Below, piece by piece: positions 2,426 to 45,128 of a DNA stretch of 64,000 bases. This DNA comes from Escherichia coli (GTDB taxonomy: Bacteria; Pseudomonadota; Gammaproteobacteria; Enterobacterales; Enterobacteriaceae): assembly GCF_044324875.1 (NCBI RefSeq), contig NZ_CP172185.1; one strand, written 5' to 3'. Within the stretch, counting starts at the first letter, position 1, and every line of letters begins with the position of its first letter. Below the pieces are notes generated by a model. The model did no database searches. It had not been told where the DNA came from and saw nothing but the letters and a program-made list of their open reading frames with translations. The translations under genes were made by a program, and so were the position numbers.

Positions 2426-3661
2426 ATGGAATTTACCACCGGATTGATGTCGCTCGACACCGCGCTTAATGAGATGCTTTCTCGCGTCACCCCACTGACC
2501 GCCCAGGAAACGCTGCCACTGGTACAGTGTTTTGGTCGTATTCTGGCGAGCGATGTCGTTTCGCCACTGGATGTCCCGGGGTTTGATAACTCCGCTATGG
2601 ACGGCTACGCGGTGCGTTTAGCCGATATTGCCTCCGGGCAACCGCTGCCCGTTGCCGGTAAATCCTTTGCCGGTCAGCCGTACCATGGTGAATGGCGTGC
2701 GGGTACCTGCATTCGTATTATGACCGGTGCGCCGGTGCCAGAAGGCTGCGAAGCGGTGGTGATGCAGGAGCAGACTGAACAAACGGACAATGGCGTGCGT
2801 TTTACTGCTGAAGTGCGTAGCGGGCAAAATATTCGCCGTCGCGGTGAAGATATCTCTGCAGGTGCGGTTGTTTTCCCGGCGGGAACTCGCCTGACTACCG
2901 CTGAACTGCCAGTGATTGCTTCGCTAGGGATTGCCGAAGTTCCGGTGATTCGTAAAGTGCGTGTAGCGCTGTTTTCTACCGGTGATGAACTCCAGTTGCC
3001 AGGCCAGCCGCTGGGCGACGGCCAAATCTACGATACCAACCGTCTCGCCGTACACCTGATGTTAGAACAGTTGGGATGCGAGGTAATCAACTTAGGGATT
3101 ATCCGCGACGATCCCCATGCCCTTCGCGCCGCTTTTATTGAAGCCGATAGCCAGGCGGATGTGGTGATCAGTTCCGGCGGTGTTTCAGTGGGTGAAGCGG
3201 ATTACACCAAAACCATTCTTGAAGAGCTGGGGGAGATCGCCTTCTGGAAGCTGGCGATTAAACCAGGTAAACCGTTCGCGTTCGGAAAACTTTCTAATAG
3301 CTGGTTCTGCGGCCTGCCGGGCAACCCGGTTTCAGCAACGCTGACCTTCTATCAACTGGTACAGCCTTTGCTGGCAAAACTAAGCGGCAATACCGCCAGC
3401 GGCCTGCCCGCGCGCCAGCGTGTGCGCACGGCATCGCCTCTGAAGAAATCGCCAGGACGCCTTGATTTCCAGCGCGGCGTGCTGCAACGCAACGCCGATG
3501 GCGAACTGGAAGTGACGACCACCGGACATCAGGGTTCACATATATTTAGCTCCTTTAGCCTCGGCAACTGCTTTATCGTACTGGAGCGCGAGCGCGGCAA
3601 TGTAGAAGCGGGCGAATGGGTGGAAGTAGAACCGTTTAACGCGTTGTTCGGAGGCCTGTAA
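2426..3661 (+). CDS. moeA: Molybdopterin molybdenumtransferase MoeA
   Basis: 411-aa ORF with MoeA-type motifs ([11 protein letters not shown]); shares the ATGA start/stop overlap with moeB. Confidence 0.92.
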
Positions 3662-4410
3662 TGGCGGAACTCAGCGATCAGGAGATGCTGCGCTACAACC
3701 GGCAAATCATTCTGCGCGGTTTTGATTTTGACGGTCAGGAGGCGCTAAAAGATTCTCGTGTGCTGATCGTCGGCCTGGGCGGCCTCGGCTGTGCAGCTTC
3801 GCAGTATCTGGCAAGCGCCGGTGTCGGCAACCTGACACTGCTCGACTTCGACACGGTTTCGCTCTCGAATCTGCAACGCCAGACGCTGCACAACGATGCC
3901 ACGGTCGGGCAACCGAAGGTGGAATCCGCCCGTGACGCCCTGACGCGGATCAACCCACATATCGCGATTACGCCAGTCAATGCACTGCTGGATGACGCAG
4001 AACTTGCTGCGATGATTGCAAAACACGATCTGGTGCTCGACTGTACGGATAACGTTGCGGTACGTAATCAACTGAACGCAGGCTGTTTTGCCGCGAAGGT
4101 GCCGCTGGTTTCCGGCGCGGCAATTCGTATGGAAGGTCAAATCACGGTCTTCACTTATCAGGACGGCGAGCCTTGCTATCGCTGCCTCAGCCGTTTGTTT
4201 GGCGAGAACGCGTTAACCTGCGTAGAAGCAGGCGTGATGGCACCGTTGATCGGCGTAATTGGTTCGTTGCAGGCAATGGAAGCGATCAAACTGCTGGCAG
4301 GTTATGGCAAACCGGCCAGCGGGATAATCGTCATGTACGATGCGATGACCTGTCAGTTTCGCGAAATGAAACTGATGCGTAACCCGGGGTGTGAGGTGTG
4401 CGGGCGGTAA
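3661..4410 (+). CDS. moeB: Molybdopterin-synthase adenylyltransferase MoeB
   Basis: 249-aa ORF; ThiF/MoeB nucleotide-binding motif LIVGLGGLGC and C-terminal CxxC pairs. Confidence 0.92.
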   Translation: MAELSDQEMLRYNRQIILRGFDFDGQEALKDSRVLIVGLGGLGCAASQYLASAGVGNLTLLDFDTVSLSNLQRQTLHNDATVGQPKVESARDALTRINPHIAITPVNALLDDAELAAMIAKHDLVLDCTDNVAVRNQLNAGCFAAKVPLVSGAAIRMEGQITVFTYQDGEPCYRCLSRLFGENALTCVEAGVMAPLIGVIGSLQAMEAIKLLAGYGKPASGIIVMYDAMTCQFREMKLMRNPGCEVCGR

Positions 4411-4485
4411 TTGCCACCTCCAGGCCTGATAAGACGCGGCACTCCGCCACGTCATCAGCAATTTATGAGGATGCAGAACGTCCGG

Positions 4486-5148
4486 TTAAATCGACGTTCT
4501 GCCAAACGCTCCCTGCCAGTCCTGCTCAAACTTCGCCACTGCGGCATCAACCGCCGGATAGCTAATCATCTGTTGTGCCACATCCAGCGGCAGAGTAATT
4601 GATTCACATCCTGCCAGTAAGCAGTCCAGAGCCTGACGCGGGGTTTTGAAACTCGCTGCCAGCACTTTCGCCTGCGGCGCATGCATTTTCAATAACTGGT
4701 GTAAGTCGGTCACAGTCTGAATACCGCAACCGCCCTGAGCATCAATACGGTTGACGTAAGGCGCAACATATTCCGCACCTGCCAGCGCCGACAGCAGCCC
4801 TTGTGCCGCGCCATATACCGCGGTTCCCAGCGTCGGAATCCCTTCCGCTTTTAACATCTTAATAGCTGCCAGCCCCTCAGCGGTCACAGGAACTTTCACC
4901 ACGATATCCGCAATAATAGAACGCAATTTACGTGCGTCATTCACCATCCCTTCAGCAGTGGTAGCCATTACCTGGGCAAACAGACGCCCCTGACCGCCCA
5001 TCGCTTCATGAAGTTCCGGAAGCACAACCTCCAGCGGTTTTTTACCCGCGGCGATAATGCTTGGGTTAGTGGTCACACCCGCCAGCGGAAAAATACGTGA
5101 CAGCGCCTTCACCGCAACAACGTCTGAAGTATCCAGATACAGTTCCAT
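4486..5148 (-). CDS. fsaA: Fructose-6-phosphate aldolase 1
   Basis: ORF 4486-5220; start set at the internal [10 protein letters not shown] (220 aa), a transaldolase-like TIM barrel. Confidence 0.88.
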
Positions 5149-5278
5149 AACCATCCTCAAAATGTACTTTTTGTCTGAATGTAGACTATCACGGGAAAAC
5201 TCTCTGAACAGTTGACGCACATCAATCTAACTTTCATTCGAAAGTATTTTAATGTTTGAACGAAACAGAGAGGCAACT

Positions 5279-6178
5279 ATGATTTTCAATATTCAGCGCT
5301 ACTCGACCCATGATGGCCCCGGTATCCGCACGGTCGTATTTCTTAAAGGCTGTTCGCTGGGCTGCCGCTGGTGTCAGAACCCGGAAAGCCGCGCCCGCAC
5401 GCAAGATCTGCTGTATGACGCACGACTGTGTCTGGAAGGCTGCGAGCTGTGCGCTAAGGCCGCGCCGGAAGTGATTGAGCGCGCGCTGAATGGTTTGCTT
5501 ATTCATCGGGAAAAGTTAACCCCGGAGCATTTTACGGCGCTAACCGACTGCTGCCCGACACAGGCGTTAACCGTGTGTGGTGAAGTGAAAAGCGTTGAGG
5601 AGATCATGGCGACCGTTTTGCGCGATAAACCGTTTTACGATCGCAGCGGCGGCGGCTTAACGCTTTCTGGCGGTGAACCGTTTATGCAGCCGGAAATGGC
5701 GACGGCGCTGCTGCAAGCCAGCCACGAGGCCGGCATTCATACTGCGGTAGAAACCTGTCTGCATGTGCCGTGGAAATATATCGCCCCTTCTCTGCCCTAT
5801 ATCGATCTGTTTCTTGCCGATTTAAAACACGTTGCCGACGCGCCGTTTAAACAGTGGACCGACGGTAACGCCGCCAGAGTGCTGGATAACCTGAAAAAAC
5901 TCGCCGCAGCGGGCAAAAAAATCATTATCCGCGTGCCGCTGATTCAGGGCTTTAATGCCGACGAAACCTCTGTAAAAGCCATTACCGATTTTGCCGCCGA
6001 CGAGCTGCACGTTGGCGAAATTCATTTCCTGCCCTACCACACGCTGGGCATCAACAAATATCACTTACTTAATCTGCCCTATGACGCCCCGGAAAAACCG
6101 CTTGATGCGCCAGAACTGCTCGACTTTGCCCAGCAGTATGCCTGCCAGAAAGGGTTAACCGCGACCTTACGAGGATAA
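5279..6178 (+). CDS. pflE: Glycyl-radical enzyme activating protein (radical SAM), PflE/YbiY
   Basis: CxxxCxxC radical-SAM motif ([13 protein letters not shown]) near the N-terminus; start set at MIFNIQRY; directly upstream of the glycyl-radical enzyme gene. Confidence 0.88.
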
Positions 6179-6183
6179 CAACC

Positions 6184-8616
6184 ATGACCACACTGAAACT
6201 GGACACGCTCAGCGACCGCATTAAAGCGCACAAAAATGCGCTGGTGCATATTGTGAAACCGCCGGTCTGTACCGAGCGCGCGCAGCACTATACTGAGATG
6301 TATCAACAACATCTCGATAAGCCGATCCCGGTACGTCGCGCGCTGGCGCTGGCGCATCACCTGGCGAATCGCACCATCTGGATCAAGCACGATGAGTTGA
6401 TCATTGGCAACCAGGCAAGCGAAGTTCGCGCCGCGCCGATCTTCCCGGAATATACCGTCTCCTGGATCGAAAAAGAGATTGATGATCTGGCGGATCGTCC
6501 GGGTGCTGGTTTTGCGGTGAGCGAAGAGAACAAACGTGTTCTGCATGAAGTGTGCCCTTGGTGGCGTGGTCAGACGGTACAGGATCGCTGCTACGGCATG
6601 TTTACCGATGAGCAAAAAGGTCTGCTGGCGACCGGCATCATTAAAGCGGAAGGCAATATGACTTCCGGCGATGCGCACCTGGCGGTGAATTTCCCGCTGC
6701 TGCTGGAAAAAGGGCTTGATGGTCTGCATGAGAAAGTGGCGGAACGTCGCTCGCGCATCAATCTGACGGTACTGGAAGATTTGCACGGCGAACAGTTCCT
6801 GAAAGCGATTGATATCGTGCTGGTGGCAGTCAGTGAACACATTGAACGTTTCGCTGCCCTGGCGCGTGAAATGGCAGCCACTGAAACCCGCGAAAGCCGT
6901 CGCGATGAACTGCGGGCGATAGCAGAAAACTGCGATCTTATCGCCCACCAGCCGCCGCAGACTTTCTGGCAGGCGCTGCAACTGTGTTACTTCATCCAGT
7001 TGATTTTGCAGATCGAATCCAACGGTCACTCAGTATCGTTTGGTCGTATGGACCAGTATCTCTACCCGTACTATCGACGCGACGTTGAACTGAACCAGAC
7101 GCTGGATCGCGAACACGCCATCGAGATGCTGCATAGCTGCTGGTTGAAACTGCTGGAAGTGAACAAAATCCGCTCCGGCTCACACTCAAAAGCCTCTGCG
7201 GGAAGTCCGCTGTATCAGAACGTCACCATTGGCGGACAAAATCTGGTTGATGGTCAACCAATGGACGCAGTGAATCCACTCTCTTACGCGATCCTTGAAT
7301 CCTGCGGTCGCCTGCGTTCCACTCAGCCTAACCTCAGCGTACGTTACCATGCGGGAATGAGTAACGATTTCCTCGACGCCTGCGTGCAGGTGATCCGCTG
7401 CGGCTTCGGGATGCCAGCGTTCAACAACGACGAAATTGTCATCCCGGAATTTATTAAACTCGGCATTGAACCGCAGGACGCTTACGACTATGCAGCGATT
7501 GGTTGTATCGAAACCGCCGTCGGTGGCAAATGGGGCTATCGCTGTACCGGCATGAGCTTTATCAACTTCGCCCGTGTGATGCTGGCGGCGCTGGAAGGCG
7601 GTCGTGATGCCACCAGCGGCAAAGTGTTCCTGCCACAAGAAAAAGCGTTGTCGGCAGGTAACTTCAACAACTTCGATGAAGTGATGGACGCGTGGGACAC
7701 GCAAATCCGTTACTACACCCGCAAATCAATCGAAATCGAATATGTCGTTGACACCATGCTGGAGGAGAACGTGCACGATATTCTCTGCTCGGCGCTGGTG
7801 GATGACTGTATTGAGCGAGCAAAAAGTATCAAGCAAGGCGGCGCGAAATATGACTGGGTTTCTGGCCTGCAGGTTGGCATTGCCAACCTCGGCAACAGCC
7901 TGGCGGCAGTGAAGAAACTGGTGTTTGAACAGGGCGCGATTGGTCAGCAACAACTGGCTGCCGCACTGGCGGATGACTTCGACGGCCTGACTCACGAGCA
8001 ACTGCGTCAGCGGCTGATTAACGGCGCGCCGAAGTACGGCAACGACGACGATACTGTCGATACGCTGCTGGCTCGCGCTTATCAGACCTATATCGACGAA
8101 CTGAAACAGTACCATAACCCGCGCTACGGTCGTGGTCCGGTTGGCGGCAATTATTACGCGGGTACGTCGTCTATCTCCGCTAACGTACCGTTTGGCGCGC
8201 AAACTATGGCAACGCCGGACGGGCGTAAAGCGCATACCCCGCTGGCAGAAGGCGCAAGCCCGGCTTCCGGTACTGATCATCTTGGCCCTACTGCGGTCAT
8301 TGGCTCGGTGGGTAAACTGCCTACGGCAGCGATTCTCGGCGGCGTGTTGCTCAACCAGAAACTGAATCCGGCAACGCTGGAGAACGAATCTGACAAGCAG
8401 AAACTGATGATCCTGCTACGCACCTTCTTTGAAGTGCATAAAGGCTGGCATATTCAATACAACATCGTTTCCCGCGAAACGCTGCTGGAAGCGAAAAAAC
8501 ATCCGGATCAGTACCGCGATCTGGTGGTGCGCGTAGCGGGTTATTCCGCCTTCTTCACCGCGCTCTCTCCAGACGCACAGGACGATATCATCGCCCGTAC
8601 TGAACATATGCTGTAA
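6184..8616 (+). CDS. pflF: Glycyl-radical enzyme (pyruvate formate-lyase-like) PflF/YbiW, substrate unknown
   Basis: 810-aa ORF with the C-terminal glycyl radical motif RVAGYSAFF; paired with its activase. Confidence 0.9.
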   Translation: MTTLKLDTLSDRIKAHKNALVHIVKPPVCTERAQHYTEMYQQHLDKPIPVRRALALAHHLANRTIWIKHDELIIGNQASEVRAAPIFPEYTVSWIEKEIDDLADRPGAGFAVSEENKRVLHEVCPWWRGQTVQDRCYGMFTDEQKGLLATGIIKAEGNMTSGDAHLAVNFPLLLEKGLDGLHEKVAERRSRINLTVLEDLHGEQFLKAIDIVLVAVSEHIERFAALAREMAATETRESRRDELRAIAENCDLIAHQPPQTFWQALQLCYFIQLILQIESNGHSVSFGRMDQYLYPYYRRDVELNQTLDREHAIEMLHSCWLKLLEVNKIRSGSHSKASAGSPLYQNVTIGGQNLVDGQPMDAVNPLSYAILESCGRLRSTQPNLSVRYHAGMSNDFLDACVQVIRCGFGMPAFNNDEIVIPEFIKLGIEPQDAYDYAAIGCIETAVGGKWGYRCTGMSFINFARVMLAALEGGRDATSGKVFLPQEKALSAGNFNNFDEVMDAWDTQIRYYTRKSIEIEYVVDTMLEENVHDILCSALVDDCIERAKSIKQGGAKYDWVSGLQVGIANLGNSLAAVKKLVFEQGAIGQQQLAAALADDFDGLTHEQLRQRLINGAPKYGNDDDTVDTLLARAYQTYIDELKQYHNPRYGRGPVGGNYYAGTSSISANVPFGAQTMATPDGRKAHTPLAEGASPASGTDHLGPTAVIGSVGKLPTAAILGGVLLNQKLNPATLENESDKQKLMILLRTFFEVHKGWHIQYNIVSRETLLEAKKHPDQYRDLVVRVAGYSAFFTALSPDAQDDIIARTEHML

Positions 8617-8761
8617 TCTCCTCGGCCCGGCGGCGGCGTCGCCGGGCTAAATCATTCACATCATCAATTTCACCCTTACTTTCATTCGAAATATAATTTG
8701 TGCTCTGCGTCACATTGTTATTACACTGTTACGGTTTCATTTTCGAGCCAGGAGCACACCT

Positions 8762-9577
8762 ATGAGCGTAAAAGTTATCGTCACAGACATGGACGGTACT
8801 TTTCTTAACGACGCCAAAACGTACAACCAACCACGTTTTATGGCGCAATATCAGGAACTGAAAAAGCGCGGCATTGAGTTCGTTGTCGCCAGCGGTAATC
8901 AGTATTACCAGCTTATTTCGTTCTTTCCTGAGCTAAAGGATGAGATCTCTTTTGTCGCGGAAAACGGCGCACTGGTTTACGAACATGGCAAGCAGTTGTT
9001 CCACGGCGAACTGACCCGACATGAATCGCGGATTGTGATTGGCGAGTTGCTAAAAGATAAGCAACTCAATTTTGTCGCCTGCGGTCTGCAAAGTGCATAT
9101 GTCAGCGAAAATGCCCCTGAAGCATTTGTCGCACTGATGGCAAAACACTACCATCGCCTGAAACCTGTAAAAGATTATCAGGAGATTGACGACGTACTGT
9201 TCAAGTTTTCGCTCAACCTGCCGGATGAACAAATCCCGTTAGTGATCGACAAACTGCACATAGCGCTGGATGGCATTATGAAACCCGTCACCAGTGGTTT
9301 TGGCTTTATCGACCTGATTATTCCTGGCCTGCATAAAGCGAATGGTATTTCGCGGTTACTGAAACGCTGGGATCTGTCGCCGCAAAATGTGGTAGCGATT
9401 GGCGACAGCGGTAACGATGCGGAGATGCTGAAAATGGCGCGTTATTCCTTTGCGATGGGCAATGCTGCGGAAAACATTAAACAAATCGCCCGTTACGCTA
9501 CCGATGATAATAATCATGAAGGCGCGCTGAACGTGATTCAGGCTGTGCTGGATAACACATCCCCTTTTAACAGCTGA
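8762..9577 (+). CDS. ybiV: HAD-family sugar phosphatase (Cof-type) YbiV
   Basis: 271-aa ORF with N-terminal DMDGT HAD motif I and GDSGND motif III. Confidence 0.88.
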
Positions 9578-9728
9578 CCTCTCTACCGGAGCCATGCGCT
9601 CCGGTTTTCCCTTCTTTTTACATCCTGTACATCACATCAAATCATTAAACTTGCATTAACTTATTTATAACTTATATTGTCACATGCAAATCATCATAGT
9701 TTCGAATGAAAGTTAATGCGAGGTGGTT

Positions 9729-10994
9729 ATGGCTTCTACTTTTACCAGCGACACATTGCCTGCCGATCACAAAGCAGCTATCCGTCAGATGAAGCACGCG
9801 CTGCGGGCACAGCTTGGCGACGTCCAGCAGATCTTTAATCAGCTAAGCGATGACATTGCTACGCGAGTGGCTGAAATCAACGCACTCAAAGCACAGGGCG
9901 ATGCCGTCTGGCCGGTGCTGTCTTATGCCGATATCAAAGCAGGTCATGTTACTGCAGAGCAGCGCGAACAGATTAAACGTCGCGGTTGTGCGGTGATAAA
10001 AGGCCATTTCCCCCGCGAACAAGCGCTAGGCTGGGATCAGTCGATGCTGGACTATCTGGACCGCAACCGCTTTGACGAGGTCTACAAAGGCCCCGGCGAT
10101 AATTTCTTCGGGACGCTCAGCGCTTCACGTCCCGAGATTTACCCCATCTACTGGTCGCAGGCGCAAATGCAGGCCCGCCAGAGTGAAGAAATGGCGAATG
10201 TGCAGTCGTTTCTCAATCGTCTGTGGACATTTGAAAGTGATGGAAAGCAATGGTTTAACCCGGATGTGAGCGTCATCTACCCTGACCGTATCCGCCGCCG
10301 TCCGCCCGGAACGACCTCCAAAGGTCTTGGAGCGCATACCGACTCCGGGGCGCTGGAACGCTGGCTGCTTCCAGCGTATCAGCACGTTTTCGCCAACGTC
10401 TTTAATGGCAATCTGGCGAAATACGATCCCTGGCATGCGGCACATCGTACGGAAGTTGAAGAGTACACGGTGGACAACACCACCAAATGTTCCGTGTTTC
10501 GGACATTCCAGGGCTGGACAGCGCTCTCTGATATGCTGCCTGGTCAGGGGCTGCTGCACGTCGTGCCCATTCCTGAAGCCATGGCGTACGTACTGTTACG
10601 TCCGCTGCTTGATGATGTGCCGGAGGATGAACTGTGCGGCGTAGCGCCCGGAAGAGTATTGCCGGTATCAGAGCAATGGCATCCACTGTTGATTGAGGCG
10701 TTAACCAGCATTCCAAAACTCGAAGCCGGAGACTCCGTCTGGTGGCACTGCGACGTCATCCATTCCGTTGCCCCCGTTGAAAATCAACAGGGCTGGGGCA
10801 ACGTGATGTACATTCCTGCGGCACCGATGTGCGAGAAAAATCTTGCCTACGCGCACAAGGTGAAGGCCGCACTGGAAAAAGGCGCATCGCCGTGCGACTT
10901 CCCGCGCGAGGACTATGAAACAAACTGGGAAGGACGCTTTACGCTTGCCGACCTCAACATTCACGGTAAGCGAGCGTTGGGAATCGACAGCTGA
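9729..10994 (+). CDS. ybiU: DUF1479-family protein YbiU
   Basis: ORF 9723-10994; start set at MASTF to give 421 aa; synteny. Confidence 0.8.
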   Translation: MASTFTSDTLPADHKAAIRQMKHALRAQLGDVQQIFNQLSDDIATRVAEINALKAQGDAVWPVLSYADIKAGHVTAEQREQIKRRGCAVIKGHFPREQALGWDQSMLDYLDRNRFDEVYKGPGDNFFGTLSASRPEIYPIYWSQAQMQARQSEEMANVQSFLNRLWTFESDGKQWFNPDVSVIYPDRIRRRPPGTTSKGLGAHTDSGALERWLLPAYQHVFANVFNGNLAKYDPWHAAHRTEVEEYTVDNTTKCSVFRTFQGWTALSDMLPGQGLLHVVPIPEAMAYVLLRPLLDDVPEDELCGVAPGRVLPVSEQWHPLLIEALTSIPKLEAGDSVWWHCDVIHSVAPVENQQGWGNVMYIPAAPMCEKNLAYAHKVKAALEKGASPCDFPREDYETNWEGRFTLADLNIHGKRALGIDS

Positions 10995-12064
10995 GTGTCG
11001 TACAGCCCTTCCCGTTCCACGGCGGTGTTCCCTTTTCCTGGGCGAACCCGCCGCACTGACTCCCGCACCGCCAATCGTCCGTGCAGCAGCAGCGAGCCCA
11101 CCGGAGCATCCGGGCGAATCAGCCGCTGTTGCAACATTTGCACCGCTTCATTGCCTAGCTCATCGCATGGCACATGCACAGCCGTCAGGGGAACATCCTC
11201 GATTGCCGCAAGGTTAAAGCCGTCGATACTCATCACCGAGACATCCTGTGGTACGCGCAGACCACGACGATGTAGCGCATTTACCGTTCCCGCCGCCATA
11301 AAATCCCCGCCGACCAGAAACGCCGTCGGCAACGTCTTGCCATTGGCGGCATCCAGCCACGCTCCGACCTTTTCTTCCGCTTCTTTAGCGCTAAAACTGC
11401 TGATATTCAGCAAATGACGGTCATGGTGAAAGGCCAGATTATGCTGACGCCATGATTCTTTAATCCCTGCAAACCGCTGCTCCATAGTGTAGCGGCGCAG
11501 GCACATCACATTCATCACCTCCCGGTGACCCATTTCAAACAGATAGCGGGCGGCGAACGCGCCAATTAACCGATGGTCCGGCGCAATCGCCGGGAGGCGC
11601 ATTCGTTCATCACGGCAGTTGATCAGCACACAAGGCTTAGCGAGATCGGCGGCCAGATCATGGATGTGCGGATCGTCAATCCCCAGCAGGATCGCCGCCT
11701 GCGTATCTGCTTCATTCATCCGCGAGAGAAATAGCGCGGGATCGCTGTCAAACTCCTCCAGCGCGCAGTAACGCAGCCGCACTTCATGCGGCGATAACGC
11801 TTTGCTGATGCTCTGGATCACACGGTAATAAAAGATATCAGATCGTTGGTCAAAAGCGCGTTGCGGCGCGAAAATAATCAGGTTGTTCAGCAACATACGA
11901 CCTGCTGCCATGCCATCCATCACGCCCAACTCACGCGCGCAGGCCAGCACCTGTTCGCGAGCGCGTGCACTGGTATTCGCTTTGCCAGCCAGCACCCGCG
12001 AAACCGTACTCGGCGATAGCCCGGTACGTGCGGCGATATCGGCGATTTTCAGCTTCTTGTCCAT
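10961..12064 (-). CDS. LacI-family transcriptional regulator (accessory module)
   Basis: N-terminal HTH KIADIAARTGLSPSTVSRVL followed by a periplasmic-binding-protein-like sugar-binding fold; start set at MDKKLK inside the longer ORF 10961-12142. Confidence 0.8.
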   Translation of the reverse strand: MDKKLKIADIAARTGLSPSTVSRVLAGKANTSARAREQVLACARELGVMDGMAAGRMLLNNLIIFAPQRAFDQRSDIFYYRVIQSISKALSPHEVRLRYCALEEFDSDPALFLSRMNEADTQAAILLGIDDPHIHDLAADLAKPCVLINCRDERMRLPAIAPDHRLIGAFAARYLFEMGHREVMNVMCLRRYTMEQRFAGIKESWRQHNLAFHHDRHLLNISSFSAKEAEEKVGAWLDAANGKTLPTAFLVGGDFMAAGTVNALHRRGLRVPQDVSVMSIDGFNLAAIEDVPLTAVHVPCDELGNEAVQMLQQRLIRPDAPVGSLLLHGRLAVRESVRRVRPGKGNTAVEREGLYDTQLSIPNARLP

Positions 12065-12352
12065 TTTGTGATCTGCCTCTAATTCGGAAATGACAGAATT
12101 TTCATGAGCAAAAAAGCCCATTCTGTCTGGCATTAAATCCATTTCAGTAATGTATATCAGTCACTCATGGAAAAACGTGCACAAAACCCGCTTTCTTTCG
12201 CTTTTAGGGTCTCTTACTGTGAATTGGTAGAACAACTTCCATACAAAAATAATGGAAAAACGAACAATAAAGACTTTATTTATCAAAAAGTTAAAAGTGG
12301 TGTGACAACTCCATTCTGACGTTGCCGCACAAACCCTATACCATTCTGTGGA

Positions 12353-13660
12353 GTGCATATGAGTCAGGGTATCAATAACGATATGACTGCCAGTAAACCG
12401 CGCCATATCGTCAAAAATCTGCGTTGGTGGATACTGGTCCTTTTTTTGCTCGGTGTTACTGTCAACTACATCACGCGTAACTCGCTGGGTATTCTCGCCC
12501 CCGAACTGAAAAGCAACCTGGGGATTACCACCGAACAATATTCCTGGATTGTAGGTGCTTTCCAGCTCGCCTATACCCTATTCCAACCGTTGTGTGGATG
12601 GCTGATTGACGTCATTGGCCTCAAACTGGGCTTTATGATCTGCGCGGGACTGTGGGCGCTGGCCTGTCTGATGCATGCGGGGGCGGGAAACTGGGTACAT
12701 CTGGCGCTGTTGCGCTTCTTTATGGGCGGTGCGGAAGCCGCGGCAACCCCAGCAAACGCCAAAACCATCGGTGAATGGTTTCCAAAATCAGAACGCCCGA
12801 TCGCCGCAGGCTGGGCAGGCGTCGGTTTTTCCATCGGTGCCATGCTGGCCCCACCGATTATCTATTTTGCCCACGCTTCATTCGGCTGGCAGGGTGCATT
12901 TATGTTCACTGGCATCCTGGCGATGCTGTGGGTGGTGCTGTGGTGGGCGTTCTATCACAACCCGGATAAGCATCCTAACCTCAGCAAAGCCGAGCTGGAC
13001 TTTATCCGCCAGGATAACGAAGCGCCCCCTGTCAAGTTACCCTTTCTGACCGCACTGAAAACCGTAGGCAAAAATAAACGCTTTTACGGTATCGCTATCC
13101 CGGCCTTTATGGCAGAACCGGCGTGGGCGGTGATGAGTTTCTGGGTTCCGCTATACCTGTCCAAAACCTATGGCATGGACCTGAAGCAGATCGCATTATT
13201 CGCCTGGTTGCCGTTCCTCGCCGCTGATCTTGGCAGTATTGCCAGCGGCTATCTGACCAAACTTTACACCCGCCTGTTTGGGCTGAGTCGTGTGAACTCC
13301 GTTGTCGCATCATCGGTCAGTGGCGCATTCCTGATGGTTTCGCTGGCGGTGATGGCCTTTACCAATAACCCGTATATCGCCATCGTCCTTATTTCCATCG
13401 GCGGCTTCGGTCACCAGATCATCTCCTGCATGCTGAGCGCACTGGTGGTGGAATCCTTCGACAAAGGTCAGATGGCCACTGTTAACGGCATGCGCGGTTC
13501 TGCCGCGTGGATCGCAAGTTTCCTGTTCTCCCTGATTATCGGGGTTACCGCTGACAAAATCGGCTTTAACCCCCTGTTTATCGCCATGGGCTTCTTTGAC
13601 CTGATTGGTGCTTTCTTCCTGGTCACCTTTATTGCTGAACGTCGCGCAAAACGCGCCTGA
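12353..13660 (+). CDS. MFS transporter, anion:cation symporter (ExuT/DgoT-like) type
   Basis: 435-aa ORF with about 12 hydrophobic segments and MFS-type loop motifs; immediately upstream of a GH31 gene. Confidence 0.8.
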   Translation: MHMSQGINNDMTASKPRHIVKNLRWWILVLFLLGVTVNYITRNSLGILAPELKSNLGITTEQYSWIVGAFQLAYTLFQPLCGWLIDVIGLKLGFMICAGLWALACLMHAGAGNWVHLALLRFFMGGAEAAATPANAKTIGEWFPKSERPIAAGWAGVGFSIGAMLAPPIIYFAHASFGWQGAFMFTGILAMLWVVLWWAFYHNPDKHPNLSKAELDFIRQDNEAPPVKLPFLTALKTVGKNKRFYGIAIPAFMAEPAWAVMSFWVPLYLSKTYGMDLKQIALFAWLPFLAADLGSIASGYLTKLYTRLFGLSRVNSVVASSVSGAFLMVSLAVMAFTNNPYIAIVLISIGGFGHQIISCMLSALVVESFDKGQMATVNGMRGSAAWIASFLFSLIIGVTADKIGFNPLFIAMGFFDLIGAFFLVTFIAERRAKRA

Positions 13661-13662
13661 GA

Positions 13663-16038
13663 GTGGATGTAAACATGAAAACGCTGAAAAACTGGACCCT
13701 GCACAAACAGTCTGCCCACCACGTTGAACTGCTGGTCGATGGCCAGCATATCCTGTGCCTGTACGTGCTGGAAGAAAATCTGTTCCGCGTGCTGTTAAAA
13801 CGCAAAGGCGAGCTGGCGCTGGATCGCACCTGGAGCATTGCTCCGGCGCAGGATGTGCCATGGGAAGGGCGCAGCCGCGAAGATCTCAGCGGCTTTAGCC
13901 TGCCCGCGTGGACATTGATCCAGCACGACGACACCGTGGTTATCGCCACCGAGTCACTGCGTGCCACCGTTCACCAGCCGCTGTGGCTGGAGTGGCACTA
14001 TCGTAACAACGAAGGCGAATGGCTGCCGTTGGTGAATGACCGCCCGACCAGCGCTTATCTGCTGAATGCCCACGGCGACGGCGTGGCGCACTATCAGAGC
14101 CGTCGTAAAGATGAACGCTTTTATGGCCTCGGAGATAAAGCCGGCGACCTGCAACGCAACGGTAAACGTTACGAGATGCGTAACCTCGACGCGATGGGCT
14201 ACAACGCCGTTAGTACTGACCCGTTGTACAAACACATTCCATTCACCATCACCCGCCGCGATGACATTAGCTTCGGCCTGTTTTATGACAACCTCAGCAG
14301 CTGCTGGCTGGATCTGGGCAACGAGATCGACAACTACCACACCGCCTATCGCCGCTGGCAGGCGGAAGCGGGTGATATCGACTACTACCTGTTTACCGGC
14401 GAACGCGTACTTGATATCACCAAAGCCTTCGTACGCCTGACCGGCAAAACCCTGTTCGGACCGAAATGGAGCCTGGGCTACAGCGGTTCAACTATGCACT
14501 ACACCGATGCGCCGGACGCACAAAATCAGTTGATGAACTTTATCCGCCTGTGTGAAGAACATGCGATTCCCTGCGATTCGTTCCAGCTCTCTTCCGGTTA
14601 TACCTCAATTAACGGCAAGCGCTATGTGTTCAACTGGAATTACGACAAAGTGCCGCAGCCGAAAGTGATGAGCCAGGCATTTCACAATGCTGGTTTGCAC
14701 CTGGCCGCCAATATCAAGCCGTGCCTGTTGCAGGATCACCCACGCTATAACGAAGTGGCAGAAAGAGGACTGTTCATCCGTGATTCAGAAACAGATGAAC
14801 CAGAACGTTCCAGCTTCTGGGATGACGAAGGTTCTAACCTCGACTTTACTAATCCGCAGACCATCCAGTGGTGGCAGGAAGGCGTGACCACACAGCTTCT
14901 GGAGATGGGTATCGACTCCACCTGGAACGACAACAACGAATTCGAAGTATGGGACGGTGAAGCACGCTGTCACGGCTTTGGTCAGACGATCGCGATCAAA
15001 CATATTCGCCCGGTGATGCCACTGCTGATGATGCGAGCCTCGATGGAAGCCCAGCAACGTTTCGCTCCGGAAAAACGTCCGTACTTGATCTCCCGCTCCG
15101 GCTGCGCGGTAATGCAGCGCTATGTGCAGACCTGGAGCGGCGATAACCGCACTAGCTGGGACACTCTGCGCTACAACACCCGCATGGGTCTGGGGATGAG
15201 CCTCTCCGGGCTGTATAACCTCGGTCACGACGTCGGCGGTTTCTCCGGTGATAAGCCGGACCCGGAACTGTTTGTACGCTGGGTACAAAACGGCGTGATG
15301 CATCCGCGCTTTACGATTCACTCGTGGAACGATGACCATACCGTAAACGAACCGTGGATGTATCCGGGCGTCACTCCGGCGATCCGCAGCGCTATTGAGT
15401 TGCGCTATCGCCTGCTGCCCTACTTTTATACCCTGATGTGGCAGGCATACGCCGATGATGAACCAATGCTGCGTCCGACTTTCCTTGACCACGAGCACGA
15501 CGTTCAGACTTTTGAAGAGTGTGATGACTTCCTGCTTGGTCGCGATATTTTGGTTGCCAGCGTCGTAGAGCAAGGCGAGCGCCAGCGCCGTGTATGGCTG
15601 CCAGATAACGAAACTGGCTGGTACGATTTCTACAACGGCGAATGGTTCAGTGGCGGTCAGTGGATCACCCTCGACGCACCGCTGGAGAAACTGCCGCTGA
15701 TGGTGCGTGCCGGGGCTGGTCTACCGCTCAGCAAACGCATCACCTATGTGAGCGCAGAACAAGACGATACCCGCGAACTGAAACTGTTCCCGCTGAAAGG
15801 TGTGGGCACAACGTCCGGCCTGCTGTTTGAAGACGATGGCGAAAGCTGGGGCTACCAAACTGGTAATGCGCTTTGGGTGGAATGGGAAATGGTTTGCGAT
15901 GGGGCGACCATCAACCTGAAAGTCAACGCGCGCGGGGATTATCGACCTGCATGGAGTGCACTGAAAGTGTCATTACCAGTGGAAGAAAAACGCACGCTGC
16001 TGGTCAATGGTGTTGAAGGGAGTGAATGGATGCGTTAA
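13663..16038 (+). CDS. Glycoside hydrolase family 31 (alpha-glucosidase / alpha-xylosidase-like)
   Basis: 791-aa ORF with GH31-like catalytic motifs WNDNNEF and HDVGGFSG. Confidence 0.8.
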   Translation: MDVNMKTLKNWTLHKQSAHHVELLVDGQHILCLYVLEENLFRVLLKRKGELALDRTWSIAPAQDVPWEGRSREDLSGFSLPAWTLIQHDDTVVIATESLRATVHQPLWLEWHYRNNEGEWLPLVNDRPTSAYLLNAHGDGVAHYQSRRKDERFYGLGDKAGDLQRNGKRYEMRNLDAMGYNAVSTDPLYKHIPFTITRRDDISFGLFYDNLSSCWLDLGNEIDNYHTAYRRWQAEAGDIDYYLFTGERVLDITKAFVRLTGKTLFGPKWSLGYSGSTMHYTDAPDAQNQLMNFIRLCEEHAIPCDSFQLSSGYTSINGKRYVFNWNYDKVPQPKVMSQAFHNAGLHLAANIKPCLLQDHPRYNEVAERGLFIRDSETDEPERSSFWDDEGSNLDFTNPQTIQWWQEGVTTQLLEMGIDSTWNDNNEFEVWDGEARCHGFGQTIAIKHIRPVMPLLMMRASMEAQQRFAPEKRPYLISRSGCAVMQRYVQTWSGDNRTSWDTLRYNTRMGLGMSLSGLYNLGHDVGGFSGDKPDPELFVRWVQNGVMHPRFTIHSWNDDHTVNEPWMYPGVTPAIRSAIELRYRLLPYFYTLMWQAYADDEPMLRPTFLDHEHDVQTFEECDDFLLGRDILVASVVEQGERQRRVWLPDNETGWYDFYNGEWFSGGQWITLDAPLEKLPLMVRAGAGLPLSKRITYVSAEQDDTRELKLFPLKGVGTTSGLLFEDDGESWGYQTGNALWVEWEMVCDGATINLKVNARGDYRPAWSALKVSLPVEEKRTLLVNGVEGSEWMR

Positions 16039-16217
16039 ATCATTACCGGGGCCGGGAGGCGACTGCGCCTTACCCGGTCCAGCCATCGAATCCTTTACCT
16101 CAGTATTTCACGCTGCAGGAAGGCAGCAAACCTGTAAACCCCGGGAGCTTAAATAAGTAAGTGACCGGGGTGAACAGGTGAAGCCAATGCATCTGCCGCA
16201 TGAAAGACGGCGGGAAA

Positions 16218-17813
16218 TTAACCGTCGATCCCTTTACTACGCAGATAATCTTCGTAATTACCGCTAAAGTCGATCACGCGTTCCGGGGTGATTTCCAGAA
16301 TACGGGTCGCCAGGGAGCTTACGAACTCACGGTCGTGTGAAACAAAGATCAGCGTGCCCTGATACAGTTCCAGCGCCATGTTCAGCGACTCAATAGATTC
16401 CATATCCAGGTGGTTGGTCGGTTCGTCCATGATCAGAATGTTCGGCTTCTGCATCATTAATTTACCAAACAGCATCCGCCCTTTTTCTCCACCGGAAAGC
16501 ACTTTCGCTGGCTTTTTGATGTCGTCCTGGCTAAACAGCAAACGACCGAGAATGCTGCGTACCGCCTGCTCGTCATCGCCTTCCTGCTTCCACTGGCTCA
16601 TCCATTCGAACACGGTCAGATCATTTTCGAACTCATATTCATGGTCCTGGGCGTAGTAACCAATGCGTGCGTTTTCAGACCATTTTACGGTGCCGCTGTC
16701 CGGTTGCAGATCGCCCACCAGCGTTTTCAGCAGCGTTGATTTACCGACGCCGTTGGTACCCAGTACCGCCAGTTTTTCACCGACCTCCAGCAGCAGGTTG
16801 AGATTTTTAAACAGCGGACCGTTATCAAACCCTTTGGTCAGACCTTCCACTTCCAGCGCGTTACGGAACAGTTTCTTATCCTGTTCAAAACGGATGAACG
16901 GGTTCTGACGGCTGGAGGCTTTCACCTCTTCCAGTTTGATTTTATCAATCTGGCACGCGCGCGAAGTTGCCTGGCGAGATTTCGAGGCGTTGGCACTAAA
17001 GCGGCTAACGAAAGATTGCAGCTCAGCAATCTGCGCTTTCTTCTTGGCGTTATCAGCCAGCAGACGCTCACGCGCCTGGGTCGCCGCCGTCATGTACTCA
17101 TCGTAGTTACCTGGATAAACGCGCAGCTCGCCGTAATCCAGATCAGCCATGTGGGTACAAACCATGTTAAGGAAGTGACGGTCGTGCGAGATGATGATCA
17201 TGGTGCTGTCACGCTCGTTCAGCACCTGTTCCAGCCAACGAATGGTGTCGATGTCGAGGTTGTTGGTCGGTTCGTCGAGCAGGAGAATGTCCGGATCAGC
17301 AAACAGCGCCTGCGCCAGCAGCACACGCAGCTTCCAGCCAGGAGCAACTTCACTCATCGGGCCGTAGTGCTGTTCCACTGGAATTCCCACGCCAAGCAAC
17401 AGTTCACCGGCGCGAGCTTCCGCAGAGTAACCGTCCATTTCGCCGTATTTCACTTCCAGATCGGCCACTTTATAGCCGTCTTCTTCACTCATTTCCGGCA
17501 AAGCATAGATGCGGTCACGCTCCTGTTTCACTTCCCACAACTCTTTATGCCCCATGATCACCGTATCCAACACAGTGAACTCTTCAAAGGCAAACTGATC
17601 CTGACGCAGCTTACCAATGCGCTCGTTGGGATCGAGGGAAACGTTACCCAACGTCGGCTCTAAGTCGCCGCCGAGGATCTTCATAAAGGTGGATTTACCA
17701 CTACCGTTCGCGCCAATCAGGCCGTAACGGTTGCCGCCGCCAAATTTGACGGAAATGTTTTCAAACAACGGCTTACTGCCGAACTGCATGGTGACGTTAC
17801 TGGAAACTAACAC
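16218..17813 (-). CDS. ybiT: ABC-F family ATPase (two nucleotide-binding domains, no transmembrane domain)
   Basis: 531-aa ORF with two Walker A motifs ([18 protein letters not shown]) and two LSGG signatures. Confidence 0.9.
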
Positions 17814-18031
17814 AGGCGTATCCTGAAAAGAGATATGACAAACCGCGCATTATGCCATAAGTCTGAAAGAAGATCCTGCTCCTCGCTTAAGGTCTACACT
17901 CAAGCCAAAGGCAAAAAATGTGATTTCGTACACATCTGATTTCACTGTGAGCTGGAATGAACTTATAATGCGCTTCCAATACTCTAATATTCTCAACCCA
18001 ATGGCCTGCCAGGCACAAAATCTCGCTTAAC

Positions 18032-18952
18032 ATGAATATGAAATTGAAAACATTATTCGCAGCGGCCTTCGCTGTTGTCGGCTTTTGCAGTACCGCCTCT
18101 GCGGTAACTTATCCTCTGCCAACCGACGGGAGTCGCCTGGTTGGTCAGAATCAGGTGATCACCATTCCTGAAGGTAACACTCAGCCGCTGGAGTATTTTG
18201 CCGCCGAGTACCAGATGGGGCTTTCCAATATGATGGAAGCGAACCCGGGTGTGGATACCTTCCTGCCGAAAGGCGGTACTGTACTGAACATTCCGCAGCA
18301 GCTGATCCTGCCGGATACCGTTCATGAAGGCATCGTCATTAACAGTGCAGAGATGCGTCTGTATTACTATCCGAAAGGGACCAACACCGTTATCGTGCTG
18401 CCGATCGGCATTGGTCAGTTAGGCAAAGACACGCCTATCAACTGGACCACCAAAGTTGAGCGTAAAAAAGCAGGCCCGACCTGGACGCCGACCGCCAAAA
18501 TGCACGCAGAGTACCGCGCTGCGGGCGAACCGCTTCCGGCTGTCGTTCCGGCAGGTCCGGATAACCCGATGGGTCTGTATGCACTCTACATCGGTCGCCT
18601 GTATGCTATCCATGGCACCAACGCCAACTTCGGTATCGGCCTGCGTGTAAGTCATGGTTGTGTGCGTCTGCGTAACGAAGACATCAAATTCCTGTTCGAG
18701 AAAGTACCGGTCGGTACCCGCGTACAGTTTATTGATGAGCCGGTAAAAGCGACCACCGAGCCAGACGGCAGCCGTTATATTGAAGTCCATAATCCGCTGT
18801 CTACCACCGAAGCCCAGTTTGAAGGTCAGGAAATTGTGCCAATTACCCTGACGAAGAGCGTGCAGACAGTGACCGGTCAGCCAGATGTTGACCAGGTTGT
18901 TCTTGATGAAGCGATCAAAAATCGTTCCGGGATGCCGGTTCGTCTGAATTAA
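18032..18952 (+). CDS. ldtB: L,D-transpeptidase (YkuD domain) LdtB/YbiS
   Basis: 306-aa ORF with signal peptide and catalytic HGC motif in [16 protein letters not shown]. Confidence 0.9.
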
Positions 18953-18969
18953 TCGTCAAAACGTTAAAC

Positions 18970-19000
18970 AAAGGCGGACTCATCATCCGCCTTTTTTATT
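18970..19000. terminator. Rho-independent terminator between convergent ldtB and ybiR
   Basis: GC-rich hairpin GGCGGACTCATCATCCGCC followed by a T-run. Confidence 0.7.
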
Positions 19001-19010
19001 TGGCCAGACC

Positions 19011-20129
19011 TTAGTTAGCCGGGAGCATAACGAATAAAACGTATCCCACCAGCGCCGCCCACAACAGCATCGGTATCGAATAAAGATGAAAACGCCACCA
19101 GATACGGCGATCGTTCGCCATCCGTAGCGCAATCAAATTTGCCAGCGATCCGGGTAATAAACCAAAGCCCCCCACGTTTACCGCCCATGCCAGCAGCAAC
19201 GACGGTGGCACATAGTTCAGCAACAATATGGTACTCGGCACGTTACTGATCACCTGCGATAAACCGATTGCCGTTAACCATAATCCGGGTTCGGATAAAT
19301 GACTCACGTTACTTAACCCCCCCTGCAAAGCTGGCAGTTGGGTTAGTAAATGGACGTCGATAAACATCGCCATAAACACCAGCAGCAGCGTCCAGTCCAC
19401 ACTCAACACCACGCGACGTGCCAGCAGCGCAAAGCCCGCCGCCACAATCACCAGTCCCCACAGCTCTTGTTTTAACTCCAGCGCCGTCAGAAAGACGATA
19501 TACAGCCCCAGACAACTCCACACCAGCCGCGGTTTCCACTCCGGAGTTTGCACCCCCGTATGGTATTGCAGTGCCTTTCCAGGGAAACAACACCAGCACA
19601 GGAGCAGGAGCGTCAGCATCATTGCGCCAGCCAGTGGTGCCATTTGGGCAATAAATCCGGCAAACGAAAGATCAGAACGTCCCCAGATAAGAATATTTTG
19701 CGGGTTGCCAATTGGCGTCAGTAGCGAACCAGCGTTGACTGCCAGCGCTTCAAAAATAATCAGCCGATTAACCGGGATCTCACACAGTCTTTTTAGCGTG
19801 ATAGTCAGCGGAACAACAATAAACAGCGCGACATCGTTGGTCAGAAAGGTAGAAAGCAGCGCCGCCGCCAGCACCATAAACATCGCCAGCCGACGCTCCG
19901 TAGCAAAGCGGCGCACCATTTTGCGCCCCAGCACATCAAAATAACCGCTTAACTCCACACCTTTGGTCAGCAGCATCAGGCCGCTTAAGGTGATGATGGT
20001 GTGCCAGTCGATAGCAGCAGGCCAGGATTTCGGTGCAAAAGGCACGAAAAAGCTTAATCCGATACCAACAAGAATTAATAACTGAAAAAAACGATCACCT
20101 TGCAGCGTGCGTAAAAAAGGCAGGCTCAT
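19011..20129 (-). CDS. ybiR: Inner-membrane transporter YbiR (ArsB/NhaD-like permease)
   Basis: 372-aa polytopic membrane ORF; overlaps the mntR stop, consistent with an mntR-ybiR operon. Confidence 0.85.
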
Positions 20130-43723: not shown

Positions 43724-44352
43724 AGCATGAAGAGTTTGAGGAAACTGAAGAGCTTCAAGCAATGAATCATATAATAAGCAGGCATAAGAGCGACATAACT
43801 ACAGGCGGAAACAGCGATACAAGAAAACTACTGGTTTAGGTCACAATGCAGCAAAATGACAAACTCATACGACGGTTCTTGTGAATGATGCGGTGCCTAA
43901 CCCGCAAATATCAGCATGATTCACCGTAGAACTTACTGATACAAGATAACGTAATGATTGAGCTTATCTCATATGGGGTAACGCGCAATAAAAATAGTTG
44001 AAACATTGTTTATAATTGTTCAATCTATCTTATTTTTATTAATATAGTTGAGCTTCTCAACACATTACTTTAAAGTTCTACACTAAAGAGAACAAAATTA
44101 TCACAACGGATATGGAGATACTTTCAGGCCAGTCAAACCGGTTTAACTGATATGGTTGAATACACGCTTGACTATGAATGGTTTATGGTATTCAGTCCCG
44201 ATAACTATGGGGCCAGTTTTGTGTAGCTTTCAACTTTAGTTGTTTTCACTCATCATAGATGATGCAATAAAAACATCATTTTCTCACGCATTGCATATTG
44301 CTGGTATATCCATATCGCATGTAGCACAGAGTGTTGACTAAATTATAGAAAT

Positions 44353-44820
44353 ATGATTTTTTATCTCATTGACAAAGAAGTTAAGGACCGAGAGATGAGT
44401 TTTAATACCACACACGAGAAATCTGAAATCTATCGTCTGATCCTTAGAGAAAGTGAACTCATTACAGCATGGGTAAAATCTGGAGACACGCCGTCAGCAG
44501 TTTACGGAAAACTACGTGATAAAAACCCGGATATAATCTTTTCGATAAATGGCTTTTTATATAACCTACGTAACTTTAACTATGCACTATATGAAACAGC
44601 CACAAAGAACAAAAGCAAAACAAGGTTAATAATACTCAACCATTATGATGATATTGCATCAGCTATCCGTGCTGGTCATACGCTTAAAGGTGTTTACAAA
44701 CTCGTATGCCCACATATAACATATAACTGTTTTATTACACAACTCAGGAAAACCTATCCTGACCTGCATTCTCAGGGTAAAGCGAATCGCAGCAACAAAA
44801 ACAGAATAATAGCTAACTGA
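44353..44820 (+). CDS. Hypothetical protein (141-155 aa) in an AT-rich region, possible C-terminal HTH
   Basis: ORF with alternative start MSFNTTHEK at 44395; the segment ASAIRAGHTLKGVYKLVCPHITYNCFITQLRK resembles a resolvase-type HTH; low GC. Confidence 0.4.
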   Translation: MIFYLIDKEVKDREMSFNTTHEKSEIYRLILRESELITAWVKSGDTPSAVYGKLRDKNPDIIFSINGFLYNLRNFNYALYETATKNKSKTRLIILNHYDDIASAIRAGHTLKGVYKLVCPHITYNCFITQLRKTYPDLHSQGKANRSNKNRIIAN

Positions 44821-45128
44821 TGATATATAAAATGTTTTACACTATATCTTTTATTGTAACTAAAATTACTTTGATCCTACAAAAAGAAAGGTAAGAAGGG
44901 GTTTAAAAGATCATCACGAGACAACTGTTCTAGTTTTTTAAGCCCCCCATTAATTTAAAAAACAGATACCAAGCATGAATAAGATTATATAAATTTCATT
45001 ACATACAATTCATTACTGTCCGGACAAACATTGTTGTTTATAAAATATAACACACCAATTGTAAAGCTGTGAGGTCATGCTACTTTTAACAGAATTTTTA
45101 AACAAGAGGGAATGGGAGACCATTAATA

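Follow-up and report, generated by a model that had tools for sequence, protein, structure and literature searches.

The window analysed here is a stretch of 64,000 nucleotides from Escherichia coli (contig NZ_CP172185.1, assembly GCF_044324875.1). The subject of this work is the gene pair ybiY-ybiW (also named pflE-pflF, positions 5279 to 8616), which encodes the radical S-adenosylmethionine enzyme YbiY and the glycyl-radical enzyme YbiW that it activates. The features of the locus are listed in Table 1. The gene fsaA is divergent from ybiY, with an intergenic region of 130 base pairs (bp) between them, and the genes ybiV and ybiU follow ybiW. This gene order is the same in K-12 and in other E. 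coli strains, and the control regions are nearly identical to those of K-12. An original prediction, made from the DNA sequence without database searches, had named the pair PflE/PflF (YbiY/YbiW) with a start at 5279 and with fsaA and ybiV as neighbours. These identities were confirmed by the open reading frames, the family matches and the annotation. It had also placed the pair, correctly, in the conserved core genome. The 3338-bp ybiY/ybiW stretch was matched by megablast in 5425 of the 5426 complete E. coli genomes, annotated as ybiY/ybiW and with 95-99% nucleotide identity.

Table 1. Genes and sequence elements of the ybiYW locus, with positions counted from the first letter of the window.
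Feature	Position	Strand	Description
fsaA	4486-5148	-	Fructose-6-phosphate aldolase 1, 220 residues; NCBIfam NF009296, 451 bits (cut-off 306); Pfam TAL_FSA; annotated fsa in other E. coli
FNR-type box TTGACgcacATCAA	5212-5225	+	Centre at 5218.5, 60.5 nucleotides before the ybiY ATG; proposed class II site at -41.5
Operator copy 1, ACTTTCATTCGAAAGT (16-mer), before ybiY	5230-5245	+	Between the FNR-type box and the -10 hexamer, in the ybiY/fsaA control region; probable YciT site
Putative -10 hexamer of ybiYp	5248-5253	+	TTTAAT; a TTTAAT-like block is conserved in the cross-genus alignment
ybiY (pflE)	5279-6178	+	Radical S-adenosylmethionine activating enzyme of YbiW, 299 residues
ybiW (pflF)	6184-8616	+	Glycyl-radical enzyme, 1,5-anhydroglucitol-6-phosphate ring-opening lyase, 810 residues
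G+C-rich hairpin	8624-8648	+	Just 3' of the ybiW stop; minimum free energy -22.5 kcal/mol, z = -3.68
Operator copy 2, before ybiV	8678-8691	+	Exact 14-mer, inside the best sigma-70 match (-35 start at 8669, -10 TATAAT at 8692-8697)
ybiV	8762-9577	+	HAD-IIB (Cof-type) sugar phosphatase; Pfam Hydrolase_3, TIGR00099; annotated 'sugar-phosphatase YbiV'
Operator copy 3, before ybiU	9698-9713	-	Exact 14-mer at 9700-9713, one mismatch to the 16-mer; about 16 nucleotides ahead of the ATG
ybiU	9729-10994	+	DUF1479/Gig2-like protein, 421 residues; Pfam Gig2-like, 2.1e-154

The reading frame of ybiY is open from 5252 (5252-6178), and the in-frame ATG at 5252 was considered as a start. It was rejected because it falls in the conserved -10 region, and both the cross-genus alignment and RefSeq favour the conserved, annotated start at 5279. 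The stop codon of ybiY is followed after 5 nucleotides (nt) by the ATG of ybiW, with GAGGA immediately ahead of that ATG. By its arrangement, ybiY-ybiW is a two-gene operon. The G+C-rich hairpin behind ybiW lacks a T-tract, the terminator scan made no call there, and none of 200 shuffled sequences folded equally well. It is possibly a weak terminator or a stabiliser of the transcript.

The YbiW chain consists of a Pfam PFL-like domain (PF02901, 1.1e-208, residues 11-671) followed by a Gly_radical domain (PF01228, 1.6e-32, residues 688-792). In NCBIfam it belongs to TIGR01774, the family of PFL2/glycerol-dehydratase-type glycyl-radical enzymes, with 1403.8 bits against a cut-off of 678.2. YbiY matches the glycyl-radical-enzyme activase family TIGR02494 (368.8 bits, cut-off 174.35) and the Pfam domains Radical_SAM and Fer4_12. 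The radical site of YbiW is Gly786 (codon 8539-8541), located within the motif RVAGY. The active-site loop is GCIE, a single Cys followed by Glu, in which Cys441 is encoded at 7504-7506 and Glu443 at 7510-7512. A motif of one Cys and then Glu (GCxE) is the signature of the eliminases, and a Cys-Cys pair is that of pyruvate formate-lyase (PFL). The comparative set comprised 80 loci, one genome per species, all from the Enterobacterales and with YbiW sequences 85-99% identical. All 80 of these orthologues have the GCIE loop and 79 have RVAGY, which is missing only at a truncated locus; the Gly786 motif is also invariant in an alignment of 22 YbiW orthologues. The CX3CX2C motif of YbiY, CSLGCRWC, spans residues 25-32 and is encoded at 5351-5374. 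The second Cys-rich block of this protein contains C51, C55 and C58 (CLEGCELC at 51-58) together with C91, C92 and C100. All the catalytic motifs of YbiW and YbiY are intact.

The YbiW of the window aligns over residues 1-810, with 1850 bits, to the Protein Data Bank (PDB) entries 8id7 and 8yjn, which are named 'Probable dehydratase YbiW'. Its paralogue PflD is present in the PDB as 8yjo. Prediction of the YbiW structure was unnecessary because the sequence match in the PDB is 99% identical. The AlphaFold2 model calculated from the 22-sequence orthologue alignment had a mean predicted local distance difference test score of 48.4 and a predicted template modelling score of 0.47, which is too poor for a comparison of folds.

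The reaction of YbiW and the pathway to which it belongs are already known and were published in 2024. According to the summary given in PMC12441222, YbiW converts 1,5-anhydroglucitol-6-phosphate to 1-deoxyfructose-6-phosphate (Ma et al., JACS 2024, 146:26187, doi 10.1021/jacs.4c07718, pmid 39283600), and PflD forms the same product from 1,5-anhydromannitol-6-phosphate. The summary describes anaerobic pathways of gut bacteria for 1,5-anhydroglucitol and 1,5-anhydromannitol, both of which start with phosphorylation by the phosphotransferase system (PTS), and it states that these routes allow E. coli and numerous other gut bacteria to grow on 1,5-anhydroglucitol. The YbiW reaction is described there as strictly anaerobic because the glycyl radical is needed, and growth on 1,5-anhydroglucitol as most likely possible under strictly anaerobic conditions only. 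The work of Ma et al. is also cited in 10.1101/2025.02.23.639758 and PMC12507026. The original prediction had regarded the substrate of YbiW as unassigned. That statement is outdated, since the literature check gave the published assignment to 1,5-anhydroglucitol-6-phosphate. The hint in the same prediction of an anaerobic sugar-derivative pathway involving fsaA agrees with the pathway as it has since been published.

As the summary reports, 1,5-anhydroglucitol is imported and phosphorylated by the PTS to give 1,5-anhydroglucitol-6-phosphate. For the ring opening that follows, the motifs described above and the chemistry of the glycyl-radical 1,2-eliminases allow a sequence of steps to be proposed. 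YbiY, with the [4Fe-4S] cluster of its CX3CX2C motif, would cleave S-adenosylmethionine reductively and generate the radical on Gly786 of YbiW. The radical would move from Gly786 to Cys441, and the resulting thiyl would abstract hydrogen from C2 of the substrate. Glu443 would then act as the base while the C1-O5 bond is eliminated and the ring opened, and the C1 radical would regain the hydrogen to yield the 1-deoxy-2-ketose. The eliminases expel, by a radical route, a leaving group adjacent to a carbinol carbon, and the YbiW reaction is of the same type. In the pathway of Ma et al., FsaA (or FsaB) is said to split 1-deoxyfructose-6-phosphate into glyceraldehyde-3-phosphate, which enters glycolysis, and hydroxyacetone, which GldA reportedly reduces to 1,2-propanediol. 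FsaA is the expected aldolase for the product of YbiW.

The arrangement of the neighbouring genes was compared over the judgeable loci of the set. The gene ybiY is located directly upstream of ybiW in 78/80 loci, and fsa is the divergent neighbour in 60/78. Downstream of ybiW, ybiV is found in 57 of 74 loci and ybiU in 53 of 71. In Serratia, Buttiauxella, Yersinia and further, more remote genera, neither ybiV nor ybiU is found next to ybiW. The linkage of ybiYW to fsa and ybiV is frequent and meaningful; contrary to the original prediction, it is not fixed. The paralogous locus of K-12 consists of gldA-fsaB-ptsA divergent from frwC-frwB-pflD-pflC-frwD. Here fsaB stands by pflD, so that the pairing of a glycyl-radical enzyme with an aldolase of the fructose-6-phosphate aldolase (FSA) family occurs twice in one genome. 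This gene content is in keeping with the FsaA/FsaB and GldA steps given above.

It is important to compare the YbiW/YbiY pair with the PflD/PflC pair of this second locus. The two systems share the fold family, the GCxE loop (GCVE in PflD), the RVAGY motif, the linked FSA-family aldolase and, as far as the summary in PMC12441222 describes them, the product 1-deoxyfructose-6-phosphate. However, PflD has 765 residues and only 38% identity to YbiW, and the substrate given for it in that summary is the C2 epimer. The pflD locus also differs in having its own PTS (frwCBD, ptsA) and gldA, and the YciT-type operator described below was not found there.

The control region of ybiY contains a candidate binding site for the regulator FNR. 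The box TTGACgcacATCAA, with the half-sites TTGAC and ATCAA, matches the FNR consensus (TTGAT-N4-ATCAA) at 9 of 10 positions, and the window has no other match to TTGAYNNNNATCAA. In class II FNR promoters the activator site is centred at -41.5. If the box occupies this position, then TTTAAT at 5248-5253 would be the -10 hexamer, transcription would start near 5260, and the operator next to the box would extend from about -30 to -15. The box followed by the operator is found in 68 of the 80 loci. In these loci the half-sites are kept, and the 4-nt spacer between them occurs in 32 different versions. The gap between the box and the operator is constant, with 5 nt to the sequence CTTTC in 67 of the 68 loci, which corresponds to 4 nt to the palindrome in the window. 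In a 2026 preprint describing a Reg-Seq promoter study, ybiYp was active only anaerobically, and an activator left a footprint some 15 nt upstream of the site of YciT. This position fits the distance of 19 nt between the centres of the FNR-type box and the operator; FNR is not mentioned in the preprint. We infer that FNR is the anaerobic activator of ybiYp, which it would switch on without oxygen from the predicted site at about -41.5.

The operator at ybiY, ACTTTCATTCGAAAGT, is a perfect palindrome, ACTTTC-ATTC-GAAAGT. The exact 14-mer ACTTTCATTCGAAA has three copies in the window, the first of them at 5230-5243, and they occur only before ybiY, ybiV and ybiU. Most of the 80 loci carry the operator, with at most one mismatch, some 50 nt upstream of ybiY, and it recurs upstream of ybiV and of ybiU across genera; at ybiV it is kept across genera in either orientation. 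It was found nowhere else, at the same tolerance, in the 80 loci of up to 18 kilobases (kb). A search at K-12 yciT (for autoregulation) and at the pflD/fsaB locus gave no match with up to 3 mismatches. The consensus scans for sigma-70 promoters and terminators were not enriched over shuffled sequences (6 promoter-like matches against 4.4 expected, 11 terminator-like against 6.4), and the sigma-70 scan served solely to locate the ybiV operator with respect to a promoter match of 10/12.

Three kinds of evidence connect these sites with YciT, a regulator of the DeoR family. Chromatin immunoprecipitation with exonuclease treatment (ChIP-exo) gave peaks of YciT binding, accompanied by a palindromic motif, at both ybiV and ybiY/fsaA, and the expression of these genes changes in a yciT deletion strain (PMC8464067). 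In the Reg-Seq preprint YciT was enriched by pull-down on ybiYp and was argued to be a repressor. In addition, YciT orthologues with 58-78% identity are encoded immediately next to ybiW or fsa in 11 loci of the comparative set (L054, L059, L066, L068, L073 at 10482-11228, L074, L075, L077, L078, L079 and L082), in genera which have no ybiV and ybiU there: Serratia, Buttiauxella, Enterobacter pulveris, Rouxiella, Brenneria, Affinibrenneria and Mangrovibacter. The gene pyrF is nearby in five of the 11 (L073-L075, L077 and L079), as it is at the yciT locus of K-12. The linked yciT of Serratia sp. Ag1 also has a gene for a class II aldolase (L073, 11261-12001) beside it. The ChIP-exo data, the Reg-Seq data and the linkage in 11 distant loci together argue for YciT as a dedicated regulator of the cluster. 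The palindromic 16-mer is probably the site of YciT, as judged by its agreement in position with the published binding data. YciT would then repress transcription at the operators of ybiY/fsaA, ybiV and ybiU, and would let go of the DNA on a sugar phosphate of the pathway.

A degenerate operator-like element, TGTTTGAACGAAAC, is also present at 5254-5267. It follows the main palindrome downstream after about 10 nt, close to where transcription of ybiY is predicted to start, and in other genera it reads TTCATACGAAA or TTCATATGAAA. This element could be an auxiliary YciT site.

The enzymology and the control elements together lead us to read ybiYW as the key step of anaerobic 1,5-anhydroglucitol utilisation, with the chemistry proposed above and under the control of FNR and YciT. 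We put the probability of this reading at a little under nine in ten. Several points weigh against it. The biochemical assignment comes from one review summary, three citations and PDB entries which are named only 'Probable dehydratase YbiW', and the FsaA and GldA steps as well as the radical mechanism are background or inference. The names in use for ybiW are still 'glycyl radical protein' in RefSeq and 'putative pyruvate formate lyase' in K-12, and the Reg-Seq preprint still treats ybiYW as lacking functional annotation. The ybiYW locus contains no PTS gene, and fsa is not found beside ybiY in Klebsiella, Raoultella, Phytobacter, some Kosakonia, Yersinia, Entomohabitans and Affinibrenneria. 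As regards the regulators, one match of the FNR type per 64 kb arises in 26 of 100 shuffled sequences, a literature search for ybiY together with FNR found no paper in the sources searched, and YciT was tied to osmolarity by Gao et al. (PMC8464067).

Three other explanations of YbiW have to be weighed. The first is that it acts in nature mainly on some other phosphate of an anhydro- or deoxy-sugar, such as a derivative of 1,5-anhydrofructose or of anhydro-sugars from plants or the diet, with YbiV and YbiU handling related compounds and 1,5-anhydroglucitol-6-phosphate being one of several substrates. The genes ybiV and ybiU share the operator of ybiYW, and the summary in PMC12441222 gives them no role. 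The orthologues in Yersinia, moreover, stand in a different context, flanked by an SgrR-like regulator and a transporter of the major facilitator superfamily (MFS), with no FNR-type box, operator, fsa or ybiV. However, the 85-99% identity of YbiW across the 80 loci argues for a single conserved substrate, and we regard this explanation as unlikely.

The second explanation is that YbiW is a dehydratase of the diol or glycerol type acting on a small polyol, for which 1,5-anhydroglucitol-6-phosphate would be a mere surrogate. The nearest structures that are not orthologues are 1r8w (2.4e-164), a B12-independent glycerol dehydratase, and the diol dehydratase 5i2a, the NCBIfam subfamily TIGR01774 is shared, and the name in the PDB is that of a probable dehydratase. 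The glycyl-radical 1,2-eliminases, which include the glycerol dehydratase 1r8w, the propanediol dehydratase 5i2a, the choline TMA-lyase CutC, the 4-hydroxyproline dehydratase HypD and isethionate sulfite-lyase, resemble YbiW in the PFL-like barrel with its glycyl-radical domain, in the GCxE loop and in an activase with extra ferredoxin-like clusters. This likeness is to be expected, since the same kind of 1,2-elimination takes place in both. On the evidence of the published summary, the ring oxygen of an anhydro-sugar phosphate serves as the leaving group in YbiW, while in the other enzymes it is water, an amine or sulfite that leaves, and YbiW scores far below the cut-offs of all their NCBIfam equivalog models. 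The genes linked to ybiW are likewise those for a sugar phosphatase and, in 60 of 78 loci, for an aldolase of six-carbon ketose phosphates, not those for propanediol or glycerol utilisation; a sugar PTS is present at the paralogous pflD locus, and growth on 1,5-anhydroglucitol by this pathway is reported in the summary of PMC12441222. A small polyol as the true substrate is therefore very improbable.

The third explanation, a second formate-lyase, can be stated briefly. PflB/PflA belongs to the same superfamily as YbiW/YbiY and shares its activation chemistry, but PflB is distant from YbiW, has a Cys-Cys site and cleaves a C-C bond with coenzyme A. That YbiW should be a lyase of pyruvate or another 2-ketoacid yielding acyl-coenzyme A and formate is hardly credible, although its K-12 name, the deposition of the orthologue 6xs4 as 'Formate C-acetyltransferase' and the Pfam PFL-like match all point that way, because it reaches only 161.3 bits against the cut-off of 994.2 of the true PFL family TIGR01255 and 581 bits against that of 1109 of the PflD-type model NF007437, has the GCIE loop and no Cys-Cys pair, is covered by the PFL structure 1h16 only over residues 254-806 (1.4e-43), and has another reaction assigned to it in the published summary (PMC12441222).

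The assignment of YbiW to the 1,5-anhydroglucitol pathway leaves the place of ybiV and ybiU to be considered. The YbiU protein is matched in the PDB by 2dbi, deposited as 'hypothetical protein ybiU', and a search of NCBIfam with this protein matched no family. Upstream of ybiU, at about 9648-9680, all genera inspected share a conserved block, AACTTGCATTAACTT...TAACTTA, which contains two repeats of TAACTT; it may be the ybiU promoter or the site of a further regulator. A palindrome of the CRP type, TGTGC-N6-TCACA, is located at 8699-8714, directly after the ybiV operator, and is found in at least ten genera with a variable spacer. It suggests catabolite control of ybiV.

It is tempting to regard fsaA, ybiYW, ybiV and ybiU as one compact regulon, with YciT as the repressor and FNR as the anaerobic activator, in which YbiV and YbiU would carry out further steps of 1,5-anhydroglucitol metabolism or detoxification. 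In such a regulon YciT might sense an anhydro-sugar phosphate or a deoxy-ketose phosphate, and its gene might ancestrally have stood beside ybiW. This proposal is a tentative one, with slightly less than even odds. It joins three sets of data, namely the work of Ma et al. on the enzymes, the ChIP-exo results for YciT and the Reg-Seq study of promoters. No source stating it was found, and part of it may already be covered by Ma et al.

The ybiYW genes of the window are orthologues of those of K-12 (b0823 and b0824; the structures 8id7 and 8yjn), with differences that are allelic only, apart from an insertion after ybiU described below. YbiW is identical to the K-12 protein at 804 of 810 residues, with 6 changes, while the gene has 90 nt differences (96.3% nucleotide identity). 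YbiY is identical at 296 of 299 residues, with 3 changes, and its gene has 17 nt differences; the fsaA product differs from that of K-12 at 4 residues. The 6 amino acid changes in YbiW, set against 90 changes in nucleotides, indicate strong purifying selection on ybiW. The highest identity of ybiYW to any complete E. coli genome is 98.1%. On this account the possibility that the window is not from E. coli was considered, and it was rejected because its flanks are 99.5% identical to E. coli ESC818 and the divergence is mosaic and almost wholly synonymous. The adjacent 10 kb are 99.5% identical to several E. coli strains. Relative to ESC818 the number of differences per 500 nt reaches 26 within ybiW, and is 0-7 in most 500-nt segments from 9.5 to 26.5 kb. 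Patches with 4-5% nucleotide divergence, almost all of it synonymous, are located at 6500-7500 within ybiW and at 2500-5000 in moeA-moeB-fsa. This pattern suggests that the ybiYW allele was imported from a lineage which is rare among the complete genomes. Judged from these alignments, the window carries an ordinary E. coli core operon with a recombinant, synonymously diverged allele.

Three genes that are absent from K-12 are inserted between ybiU and ybiT. They encode a LacI-family regulator (10961-12142, minus strand), an MFS transporter of the anion:cation-symporter type (12353-13660) and a GH31 glycosidase of 791 residues (13663-16038), the last being nearest to enzymes of the alpha-glucosidase II type (5f0e, 1.5e-78). 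At least 80% of the stretch from 9600 to 20000 is present in 576 of the 5426 complete E. coli genomes. The GH31 gene was considered as an alpha-1,4-glucan lyase which could supply anhydro-sugars. This was unsupported: its nearest solved relatives are hydrolases of the alpha-glucosidase II type, and the protein falls below every NCBIfam equivalog cut-off.

Further downstream, collinearity with ESC818 stops just past glnH, at about 26570, and glnP, glnQ and ybiO were not found in the rest of the window after glnH. The region from about 26570 to 64000 contains genes for a tyrosine recombinase, transposases of IS66, IS3 and IS21, sitA and a TPR protein, and at least 80% of the stretch 26000-46000 was matched in 5 of 5426 genomes. 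The region resembles a large genomic island that apparently entered the interval between glnH and glnP.

The potentially new content of this analysis is confined to the regulatory synthesis and to the question of the roles of YbiV and YbiU; it is modest and may be covered in Ma et al. The public annotation of ybiYW lags behind the literature, so automated or unaided readers of such genomes will go on flagging this pair. 1,5-Anhydroglucitol serves clinically as a glycaemic marker, and in two human neutropenias its 6-phosphate has toxic effects. The sensing and consumption of 1,5-anhydroglucitol by gut Enterobacteriaceae is therefore of some practical interest.

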